Shown piece by piece: positions 1 through 3,000 of a stretch of DNA of 14,340 bases (position 1 is its first letter; each line of letters opens with the position of its first letter). The stretch is from a virus (taxonomy: Duplodnaviria; Heunggongvirae; Uroviricota; Caudoviricetes): the IMG/VR virus record IMGVR_UViG_2579778884_000008. One strand, 5' to 3'. The position numbers are program-made.

Positions 1-3000
1 CTATGCTGTTTTGATATCTACGATAATCCAGTCTTTACCACGATCATCATTGTATCGGTCGGTCATTTTTCTGGATTTATGGCCTAACAACTTTTGCGTA
101 TCCAGACCCTGTTCCCGATATAACCGTTCTGACAGAGATCGCTGCTCATGAAATGTGGGCGCAGTTCCTTGCTCCCATTTTATGCCACATTTTTCCCGGG
201 CCTTTTTAAAAGCCGTTGTCAGAGTATTTGCAGAAACCTGGTCTCCTCTGTTTGCTTGAGAGGTAGTGTGACGGTAATGGACCAGATATTTACTAACAAC
301 AGCATCCCTGCACTGAGATATAACTTCACGAAGGGTAATATTCAGAGCATCGCATTTCAGGTTAAGCGGAATAGCAAGTTTTGAACCGGTTTTTTCCTGA
401 GTAATGTGCAACATGTCGTCCCATATATCAGAGAATTTCAAATTGCAGATATCGCCTAAACGTTGTCCAGTAACAAGAGCAAGTAGCATGCCGCATTTTA
501 AATAGGGCTGCCGTCTGCTTACGCTGTCAAATATTGCCTGCCATTCGGGCAGTGACAATCTTTGGCGGTTTACTCGATTTCGCGGTTGTTTTGTTGCCTG
601 CGCTGGGTTAAATCCTGGCGGAACATGTCCTGCGTGTTGTGCTTCTTTGAAGACGTCGATCAACACCATTCTCACGACTTGCGCCATCCTGTTATGACCT
701 TCAGCCTTTACAGCATCAATTATTTCGGCAATATCAAGTGCGGTAATATCCTTGAGGTGTTGCATTCCACAATGCTCACGGAAAAGACGAATGGGTTTGC
801 CTTTTTGCCGATAGGAGTTGGGTCTTAGTTCATTATGTTGCAGCCTGTCCTCTTGGATAGAAATATATTTATCAAGCCATTCTGTCACCGTAATGTCTGA
901 GCGCCTGCCTTTCATTCTTTCCAGACGCTCATTGACGCTTAATATTTGTCTGGTACGTTGTTCAGCAATAATGGTATTTGCTTCAGTAGCAACTTGTTTT
1001 GCTTCATTCTCATCAGTTCCTAAGCTATGAAAACGACCGGATAGTGGATGTTTGTATTGCCAATATACCTTTCCGGTTCGCTTATCTAATTTGCAATATA
1101 AATTGGGTATAGAGATTTTGTGAGATCGGGGTCTAGCAGCCATCAGCGATTATCCTTTGGAGTTTTGGGTTTGCGTTTATTGGGAGTTGCGGTTCTGCAA
1201 GCGTTCCTACAAAACGGGAATTTCGGTCAATCATCCAGTAGCGACCAACTTTTATAGCGGGTGGGGCCATCATTTTCCCTTGCGCGTATTTTTTCAGAAC
1301 TCGCTCACTTGGTGCTAAGTCCCCAAATTCTTCTTTAGCCCAGTCCTGTAAAGTGATTAGTCGAGACATTTGTCCTCCTCTTAGCTGCTGAGGGAGTTTG
1401 TGACCGATATATCTGACATGATATTAAGCTCATGGCAGGTACATCTCTTGACTGGTCATAGAGATAAATTTAATGCTGAGAAATGCAGTATTGAATTTAT
1501 CAATTTTTCTATTTCCTGCGCATGTCACGTAACTTCTTAATGTGTTCTGCCGTTTCGATCTCTTCTGCTATCCGATCTGCATCAGCTTTATTCACAGGTT
1601 CAAAGTCATGATTAAAGCGGAACATGCTGGCGATACATGTTCTGCCTTTTCGGATGTAGTGAACTTTGTTGTGGGTAGAACGCAGGATTTTGCAGGGAGT
1701 GCCGTGGTGGTCGACGTACCAGGTGTTAGGGTCAATCACTCTGAACATTCTTGACCTTGTGTTGTGCGGATTGATATTCAGTGCTGATATTCACCTTTAT
1801 AGCGAACACCTTTACCGGTTTATCGCCAAAGTGCGGATGTGTGATTGTCTTCACTTCATATCCGTCATACGGAACATCAATTCTGCGACTGGAATCGTCG
1901 CGCTTCGGATATCCCTTTGTGATAATCAGGCGGTCATATTCCCGGAACATAATTCGCTTATTCCAGTAGTCATTACACAAGCGATACTCTTCCGTTTTCT
2001 CTCCGCGAATCATGGCATCGAAGTATTCACTTTTAACAGCAAGTTGCAGGTTAGCCATCACTTAATCCCCCTTTGTTTGCGGATAAGCTCCAGATCTTGC
2101 TGGCAACTGGCGCAAGTCCGACAACCCTGAACGGCCAGGCGTCTTCGTTCATCTATCGGATCGCCACACTCACAACAATGAGTGGCAGATACAGCCAGGT
2201 AGTTCAGGCGGCGCATTTTTATTGCTGTGTTGCGCTGTAATTCTTCTATTTCTGATGCTGAATCAATGATGTCTGCCATCTTTCATTAATCCCTGAACTG
2301 TTGGTTAATACGCTTGAGGGTGAATGCGAACAATAAAAAAGGAGCCTGTAGCTCCCTGATAATTTTGCTTTTCATGTTCATCGTTCCTTAAAGACGCCGT
2401 TTAACATGCCGATTGCCAGGCTTAAATGAGTCGGTGTGAATCCCTTCAGCGTTACCGTTTCGCGGTGCTTCTTCAGTACGCTACGGCAAATGTCATTGAC
2501 GTTTTTATCCGGAAACTGCTGTCTGACTTTTTTGATTTCAGAATTAGCCTGACGGGCAATGCTGCGAAGGGCATTTTCTTGCTGAGGTGTCACTGAACAA
2601 GCCCCATGTCGGCAAGCATAAGCACACAGAATATGAAGCCCGCTGCCAGAAAAATGCATTCAGTGGTTGTCATACCTGGTCTCTCTCATCTGCTTCTGCT
2701 TTCGCCACCATCATTTCCAGCTTTTGTGAAAGGGATGTGGCTAACGTATGAAATTCTTCGTCTGTTTCTGCTGGTATTGGCACAAACCTGACTCCAATTT
2801 GAGCAAGGCTATGTGCCAAATCAATACTCGTTCTTAACTCAACAGGAGATGCTTTGTGCATACCGCCCCCCGTTTATTATTTATCTCCTCAGCCAGCCGC
2901 TGGGCTTTCAGCGGATTTCGGATAACAGAAAGACCGTGAAATACCCAGCCTCGCTTTGTAACGGAGTAGACGAAAGTGATCGCGCCTACCCGGATATTAT

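Follow-up and report, generated by a model that had tools for sequence, protein, structure and literature searches.

The window studied here, a stretch of 14,340 nucleotides recorded as IMGVR_UViG_2579778884_000008, is a lambdoid E. coli prophage, and over its full length it is 98.5% identical to a prophage of strain 4/1-1. On its minus strand, between an orf63-like gene and the gene known as orf61, lies an open reading frame (ORF) of 27 codons (2590..2673), here called sORF27, which would encode the hydrophobic peptide MTTTECIFLAAGFIFCVLMLADMGLVQ. Its conservation, selection pattern, hydrophobicity and double 4-nt overlap lead us to consider it probable that the leftward early (pL) operon of lambda-type phages contains sORF27 as a genuine protein-coding gene, coupled to its neighbours on both sides and specifying a membrane-helix peptide that may bind a larger membrane protein. 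It has escaped notice because this stretch is assigned to the beginning of orf61 in most phage records and in the literature. Small phage membrane peptides are a known kind, and the interest of sORF27 would lie in its being an unrecognised gene in lambda itself, with a bearing on published orf61 work.

Anatomy and conservation of the 27-codon frame

The ATG of sORF27 (2673-2671) overlaps the TGA stop (2672-2670) of the orf63-like gene to give an ATGA at 2673-2670, and its own TGA (2592-2590) overlaps a GTG (2593-2591) in frame with the downstream gene to give a GTGA. A purine-rich, Shine-Dalgarno (SD)-like stretch, GAGAGAGACCAGG (2675..2687, minus strand), lies upstream of the ATG. The peptide comprises an uncharged hydrophobic core of 16 residues, CIFLAAGFIFCVLMLA (C6-A21), preceded by MTTTE and followed by DMGLVQ. 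Each end bears an acidic residue, basic residues are lacking, and the net charge is -2. The two overlaps, the purine-rich stretch, the peptide and its 16-residue core had all been described in an earlier reading made without database searches (hereafter the sequence-only reading), and all of these statements proved correct.

An open frame of 27 codons is by itself not significant in the window, and sORF27 was compared with the set of 149 ORFs of 20-45 residues found in its six frames. It alone among the 149 overlaps, by 4 nt at both ends, ORFs of 60 residues or more, and it ranks first in hydrophobicity, with a Kyte-Doolittle 17-residue maximum of 2.44. The Hessa-scale sum for the 16-residue core, which is short and has no flanking basic residues, is -3.4. 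Small-xxx-small spacings can be read from the sequence at C6xxxA10 and G12xxxC16.

Anti-SD pairing at the sORF27 ATG amounts to -5.6 kcal/mol at a spacing of 6 nt, a value to be set against the ~9-16% of random window positions that reach -6 to -5 kcal/mol. In mosaic relatives in which a Dam-methylase gene precedes sORF27, a GGGAGG motif pairs at -10.3 kcal/mol with a spacing of 3 nt, so that an ATGA overlap with the upstream stop, together with an SD, is found in both upstream contexts. The corresponding values are -4.7 kcal/mol (spacing 7 nt) for the orf61 GTG at 2593 in the window, -4.0 kcal/mol (spacing 3 nt) for the orf61 ATG in lambda, and -3.9 kcal/mol (spacing 13 nt, no usable SD) for the ATG at 2659 from which a longer orf61 has been read. 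An RNA-element explanation of the conserved region was tried and rejected, as no Rfam family matched it and its mRNA folds less than shuffled sequence (z = +1.7). A consensus scan of both strands gave a single promoter-like hit, at 3113-3140 on the plus strand, and nothing within 2000-3100; a published BPROM scan reported only a weak site (score 0.59) inside sORF27. A canonical in-frame slippery heptamer for a frameshift from sORF27 into orf61 was not seen by eye, and no further search was made.

About 320 copies of the locus were assembled. IMG/VR supplied copies through a protein search and through a DNA anchor located downstream of the ORF; the same anchor served to scan an independent set of metagenomes, and further copies were taken from phage and E. 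coli records. sORF27 is present in 209 of the 221 orf61-anchored copies in the viral, phage and genome sets, always as an open frame, with 27 residues in 208 and 26 in one. The metagenome set carries it in 109 of 116 copies: 107 of these are undamaged, a frameshift disrupts another, and the last lacks the stop codon; this stop-codon loss also destroys the start of orf61. Among the ~320 copies a base deletion inside sORF27 occurs in one and an insertion in none. The sequence-only reading had proposed the conservation of the peptide frame relative to the 93-residue frame as a check, and for the ~318 copies that carry the ORF the outcome is one frameshift, one stop loss and, further, one 14-nt deletion near the start that is considered below. 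In every copy of the first sets position 2593 is only A or G; orf61 thereby retains a start codon, ATG or GTG, and the peptide codon alternates between the synonymous CAA and CAG. In one locus (L109, JAOWOI010000001.1, ~250-1500) an IS3-family element sits in orf61 just after an A-run, with sORF27 intact upstream of it.

For the selection analysis each site-by-allele substitution was counted once, and the expected synonymous fraction was computed on the consensus, with transitions weighted by 2. With all variants of the first sets, the peptide frame showed 15 synonymous and 11 nonsynonymous substitutions (omega 0.23, p 2.5e-4), distributed 5/5/16 over the three codon positions. When all sets were pooled the counts were 15 and 18 (omega 0.38, p 0.006), and they became 12 and 8 for variants seen at least twice (omega 0.21, p 7e-4) and 9 and 2 for those seen at least five times (omega 0.07, p 9e-5). 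This signal is comparable to that of the control genes over three cut-offs, namely 0.16-0.40 for the 71-residue orf61 and 0.34-0.40 for orf63. In contrast, the frame of the 93-residue extension (frame B) gave an omega of 1.0-2.1 with no synonymous excess and the remaining frame (frame C) 1.0-3.2, again over three cut-offs. The mostly synonymous pattern that the sequence-only reading had named as a discriminating observation is hence present in the peptide frame and not in the 93-residue one. Nonsynonymous variants of sORF27 are almost all rare alleles, which is the expected mark of purifying selection. Moreover, the common polymorphisms do not alter the peptide, whereas in frame B they produce the replacements G>R, S>C, H>Y and A>T, and one peptide-silent site toggles the upstream extent of frame B between open and a stop codon. 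Taken together, these substitution patterns indicate that the amino-acid sequence of sORF27 is under purifying selection, which would mean that the product matters and not the act of translation alone.

Mosaic relatives place the upstream border of the conserved unit at the sORF27 start, with homology beginning exactly at its ATG in 29 of 236 hits and in 12 of 109 metagenome copies. In one annotated mosaic (L112) sORF27 is preceded by the gene of a phage N6-adenine methyltransferase; the TGA of this gene likewise overlaps the sORF27 ATG, and the GGGAGG SD mentioned above lies in front of it. In ~6% of the orf61 copies, by comparison, a 250-aa gene replaces both orf63 and sORF27, and in these copies, including the mosaic L107, orf61 starts at the same codon as in the 71-residue model (MTIEHNNALRS...). 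The 250-aa gene of L107 (741-1493 of that locus) has no Pfam hit and is represented by 7-11 similar copies per data set; the junction of this type of mosaic falls inside orf61 codons 3-7. No small ORF was found after diverged DUF1382/orf63 genes (71-78% identity), which are followed by Ea22-like genes or by an unrelated 71-aa protein, and sORF27 therefore travels with orf61 rather than with orf63.

The 601 bases around sORF27 are 96.7% identical to phage lambda. An identical peptide is encoded in lambda (J02459 30928-31008, minus strand), 434, HK630, 933W, VT2-Sakai and other Shiga-toxin (Stx) phages, making 176 phage records in total, and matching DNA occurs in 3145 of 5426 complete E. coli genomes as well as in some plasmid-classed records. 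tblastn searches against phages and plasmids returned near-identical copies only, apart from a lone 47%-identical match with E = 5, and no match to the peptide was found in Pfam, NCBIfam, PHROGs or PADLOC (defence and toxin libraries included) or, by sequence, among solved structures. The orf61 family was likewise limited to E. coli-type prophages in a search for distant homologues. Most of the matches in genomes of other genera (Shewanella, Pseudomonas, Bacillus-type and others) carry the exact frameshifted lambda allele of orf61 described below, and these non-Escherichia matches look like contamination of assemblies with lambda DNA. As for its annotation state, the sequence-only reading had called the ORF unannotated, which is right for RefSeq/PGAP and for the phage records inspected, all of which omit it, but not for some GenBank E. 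coli records, in which the exact peptide is a 'hypothetical protein' (UniRef A0A0A2SGE8). The peptide sequence was not found in the literature searched or in the Sakai Ribo-seq supplements, and a literature search on the exo-xis region, which did not cover the primary lambda ribosome-profiling paper, gave no mention of a 27-aa ORF.

The extent of orf61

In the exo-xis papers orf61 has 61 residues in lambda and 93 residues in Phi24B and 933W, and it is reported to be pro-lytic. Our comparisons favour a third form, a 71-residue gene (2378..2593, minus strand) that starts here with the GTG at 2593, and in most relatives with ATG, at the codon overlapping the sORF27 TGA. PGAP and the CPT annotation of phage 434 both call this 71-residue protein from the ATG/GTG at the sORF27 stop, and in doing so they leave a 76-nt gap over sORF27. 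The sequence-only reading had suggested that the true organisation may be the peptide followed by a protein of ~71 residues, and this suggestion is borne out by frame conservation, by the synonymous excess in the peptide frame, by the PGAP and CPT start and by the start in the mosaics.

The lambda records present a separate problem. Their 61-residue 'orf61' (lambda 30839-31024) begins inside orf63 and encloses the whole of sORF27 in another frame. The lambda reference carries an extra A in an A-run (equivalent to 2508-2513 of the window) that truncates the 71-residue gene, and a T>G change, silent in the peptide, opens frame B upstream (locus L002, PV340536 812-997). The 61-residue lambda 'orf61' is thus a chimera of frame-B read-through and a broken 71-residue gene.

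The 93-residue form (2659-2378) is a rival reading of the DNA of sORF27, as it would make that DNA the N-terminus of Orf61 from the ATG at 2659 and the 27-codon frame an accident. It is annotated in 933W (L0070), Turner and ev110, PHROG 303 covers it, gene callers produce many N-terminally extended proteins of this kind, it was the form used in the published Phi24B Orf61 model (PMC8614690), and one natural variant (L007) reads from an upstream ATG into frame B. The extension (2594..2659, minus strand) begins with MHFSGSGLHILCAYACRHGACS, where, in line with the implausible Cys/His-rich start noted by the sequence-only reading, 3 Cys and 3 His fall within 22 residues. Against these annotations stand the frame-B omega of 1.0-2.1, with synonymous changes in 0 of 5 common variants in the first sets and in 1 of 6 in all sets, and the tolerance of radical replacements, among them G>R, S>C, S>R and H>Y. 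The ATG at 2659 has no SD, PGAP and CPT choose 71 residues, and the extension of Orf61 is not conserved in the Orf61 frame, with homologues in other mosaics lacking it and beginning at the 71-residue codon. An AlphaFold model of the 93-residue ORF assigns residues 1-20 a pLDDT of 44-54 and residues 21-80 one of 72-88, a pattern that agrees with the published model, in which residues 1-23 were set aside (PMC8614690). Every comparative test disfavours the 93-residue reading, which we regard as highly improbable, and the stretch 2594..2659 is most likely noncoding in frame B.

We therefore favour, on comparative grounds, the gene order orf63, sORF27, 71-residue orf61, in which both the 93-residue and the lambda 61-residue 'orf61' would be mis-annotations. 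If this is true, the gene map is wrong in the lambda reference and in most phage records, and should read orf63, sORF27, 71-residue orf61, 31-residue ORF and orf73; in addition, 22 of the residues included in structural modelling of the 93-residue Orf61 were probably never made.

Two proposed identities for Orf61 itself were also considered and not retained. In part of the genomes RefSeq/PGAP labels the product of the 71-residue gene 'cell division protein ZapA', with a Pfam ZapA score of 16.9 bits against a cut-off of 23.8, and the Orf61 model has no significant fold match in the PDB (best E = 2.5). The ZapA name accordingly looks unfounded, and the published homeodomain suggestion finds no support here either.

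Possible roles of the peptide and the published orf61 mutants

The best reading of the peptide is a single-pass small membrane peptide. Ribosomes that finish orf63, or the Dam-methylase gene in the mosaic, at the UGA would restart at the overlapping AUG of sORF27 with the help of its moderate SD, and would produce a peptide of 27 residues with one short hydrophobic helix (residues 6-21). Termination at the sORF27 UGA, which overlaps the AUG or GUG of the 71-residue orf61, would then deliver ribosomes to that weak-SD gene. This termination-reinitiation coupling from orf63 (or dam) through sORF27 to orf61 is suggested by the anatomy of the junctions, and insertion into the inner membrane by the composition of the peptide. 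The leftward early operon is repressed in the lysogen, and the position of sORF27 in this operon points to an action early in lytic growth and not in the lysogen. There the helix would most likely enter the inner membrane and, in a mechanism that we put forward with low confidence and by analogy with small membrane-protein regulators, bind a larger membrane protein of the host or the phage. The ORF itself, its conservation, its pattern of selection, the borders of the genes and the hydrophobicity were observed directly, whereas translation, coupling, membrane insertion and target binding are inferred.

Bacterial regulators of the AcrZ, MgrB, MgtS, SgrT and PmrR type offer the nearest parallel. 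Like sORF27 they have fewer than 50 residues, one predicted hydrophobic helix and no enzymatic domain, and they too were missed by standard annotation; the small-xxx-small spacings of sORF27 would suit helix-helix packing. Unlike them, sORF27 lies in a phage early lytic operon and has no basic residues and a charge of -2, and it has no sequence relation to them. Its relation to lambda orf61/PHROG 303 is one of shared DNA, as it lies on the DNA of the first 22 codons of the 93-residue model and wholly inside the 61-residue lambda model, although in another reading frame, with selection acting on the peptide frame and not on the Orf61 extension.

Several observations weigh against a coding membrane peptide that acts on a target. 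The selection test rests on 26-33 distinct substitutions among copies that are phylogenetically related, and the homologues, which come only from Escherichia-type lambdoid phages, all share at least ~90% identity. The SD is only moderate in the common orf63 context, a 16-residue core without basic flanks is short and atypical for a membrane anchor, and there is no sign of a target protein. About 6% of orf61 copies are without sORF27, so orf61 can do without it. In Escherichia sp. E1V33 (L007, NZ_RHJI01000010.1, ~1430-1510) a 14-nt deletion fuses the sORF27 ATG to the orf61 frame. Finally, the peptide is missing among the new peptides that PMC8614690 reviews from lambda ribosome profiling; footprints on a nested 27-aa ORF, however, would have been credited to the annotated orf61. 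In L007, the only such case seen, the ATG of sORF27 is kept after a diverged methylase-like gene ending in ...TEAA and a stop, and the predicted fusion has 89 residues.

If sORF27 is translated, its peptide could still be a functionless by-product that is degraded, the frame serving only to carry ribosomes on from orf63 into orf61. Such a relay would fit the 4-nt overlaps at either end, the weak orf61 SD (-4.7 or -4.0 kcal/mol) and the constant association of sORF27 with orf61 rather than with orf63. An open frame would suffice for this purpose, yet amino-acid changes are selected against (omega 0.07-0.38) and a strongly hydrophobic composition is maintained, and in L107, where the peptide is absent, orf61 has an SD of its own; we consider this explanation unlikely. 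A membrane-damaging toxin of the type I or holin kind, which early in infection would dissipate the potential of the host membrane or make it permeable, is in our view very unlikely. The size and hydrophobicity of the peptide resemble those of such toxins, and the operon is rich in host-directed functions, including kil, gam and the TraR-like orf73 (PMC9239242). Early depolarisation would nonetheless cut the yield of the phage itself, and the defence and toxin libraries gave no hit. Type I toxins such as Hok, Ldr, Ibs, TisB and ShoB are also short hydrophobic single-helix peptides, and known peptides of the type I toxin or holin kind usually carry basic residues, of which sORF27 has none; it lacks an antisense RNA locus, an own or antisense promoter and a folded leader, its mRNA being unstructured, and it is translationally coupled within an operon.

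The functional comparisons put forward by the sequence-only reading fare poorly. A type I toxin-like peptide is not supported, given the lack of an own or antisense promoter and the unstructured mRNA, and a Kil-like division inhibitor is not either, with no hit in Pfam, PHROG, NCBIfam or PADLOC and a separate kil-like gene elsewhere in the window. A gene that sits in the leftward early operon, which the repressor shuts off, is unlikely to provide an exclusion factor that acts in lysogens. A single-pass small membrane peptide remains the reading that we prefer, and as for its action we rank the binding of a protein partner above pore formation.

Few phages have received as much study as lambda and the Shiga-toxin phages, and the exo-xis region is under current investigation for its effect on the lysis-lysogeny decision. 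In the orf61 deletion mutants the orf61 nucleotide sequence was swapped for an 87-nt scar (PMC6213356). Judging from the coordinates, we infer that such deletions eliminate sORF27 completely in lambda and spare only its first 14 nt in Stx phages, so that the published orf61 deletions very probably also removed sORF27. The published orf61 phenotypes would then be confounded, and the knock-outs would be double knock-outs. The deletions took the whole annotated orf61, sORF27 included, and the 71-residue gene of lambda is already frameshifted; we tentatively suggest, as a possibility that we rate well below even, that sORF27 is an effector in its own right and accounts for part or all of the 'orf61' deletion phenotypes, namely more lysogeny, higher host survival and poorer adsorption of Phi24B progeny. 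A plasmid-borne 1-bp frameshift in 'orf61' is also reported to have had effects. In a bolder variant of this idea, membrane insertion of the nascent peptide might tune the ribosome supply to orf61, by analogy with sensing of the MifM type. As sORF27 is found in more than half of the complete E. coli genomes, it would be a common and readily testable candidate modulator of host membrane function.

The 31-residue ORF and other features of the window

On the minus strand the genes run in the order bet, exo, orf60a-like (DUF1317), orf63-like (DUF1382), sORF27, 'orf61', a 31-residue ORF, orf73 (TraR/DksA), an ASCH gene, DUF4222, xis and int. The orf63-like gene (2670..2861, minus strand; 63 residues) matches Pfam DUF1382 with E = 9e-29. 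The 31-residue ORF (2286..2381, minus strand) starts with an ATG that overlaps the orf61 stop, again as ATGA, and contains a terminator-like hairpin at 2357-2339, the same as the 't2' predicted by Bloch et al. 2014. In many relatives GTG stands in place of its first ATG. The next gene of the operon is orf73 (2058..2279, minus strand), which encodes a TraR/DksA zinc-finger protein (PMC9239242).

The 31-residue ORF, named orf2313 in PMC8614690, is in several respects a companion of sORF27, being a small ORF of the same operon that is ATGA-coupled to the preceding gene and partly hydrophobic in its centre. It is said there to be detected by lambda ribosome profiling, and the review of these data has the annotated exo-xis ORFs expressed and lists as extra peptides only this one and one of 7 residues (PMC8614690). 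Selection on the 31-residue ORF gives a weak signal (omega 0.4-0.6, p 0.07-0.18). The two ORFs are thus complementary in their support, with profiling reported and weak selection for orf2313, and strong selection but no reported profiling support for sORF27.

Farther from the operon segment discussed above, the kil-like gene, annotated as a 'phage encoded cell division inhibitor', occupies 4853-5059 and is separate from sORF27. Between it and the S24-peptidase repressor lie ~600 bases (5060-5654) without an annotated gene, in which the sole ORF of more than 40 residues arises by extending the kil-like frame upstream (4853-5143) and no N-type antiterminator gene is evident. An inverse-autotransporter gene of the intimin/invasin type, 4.3 kb long (9252-13517, plus strand), lies directly 3' of the replication gene P and is an unusually large cargo for that position in a lambdoid prophage.

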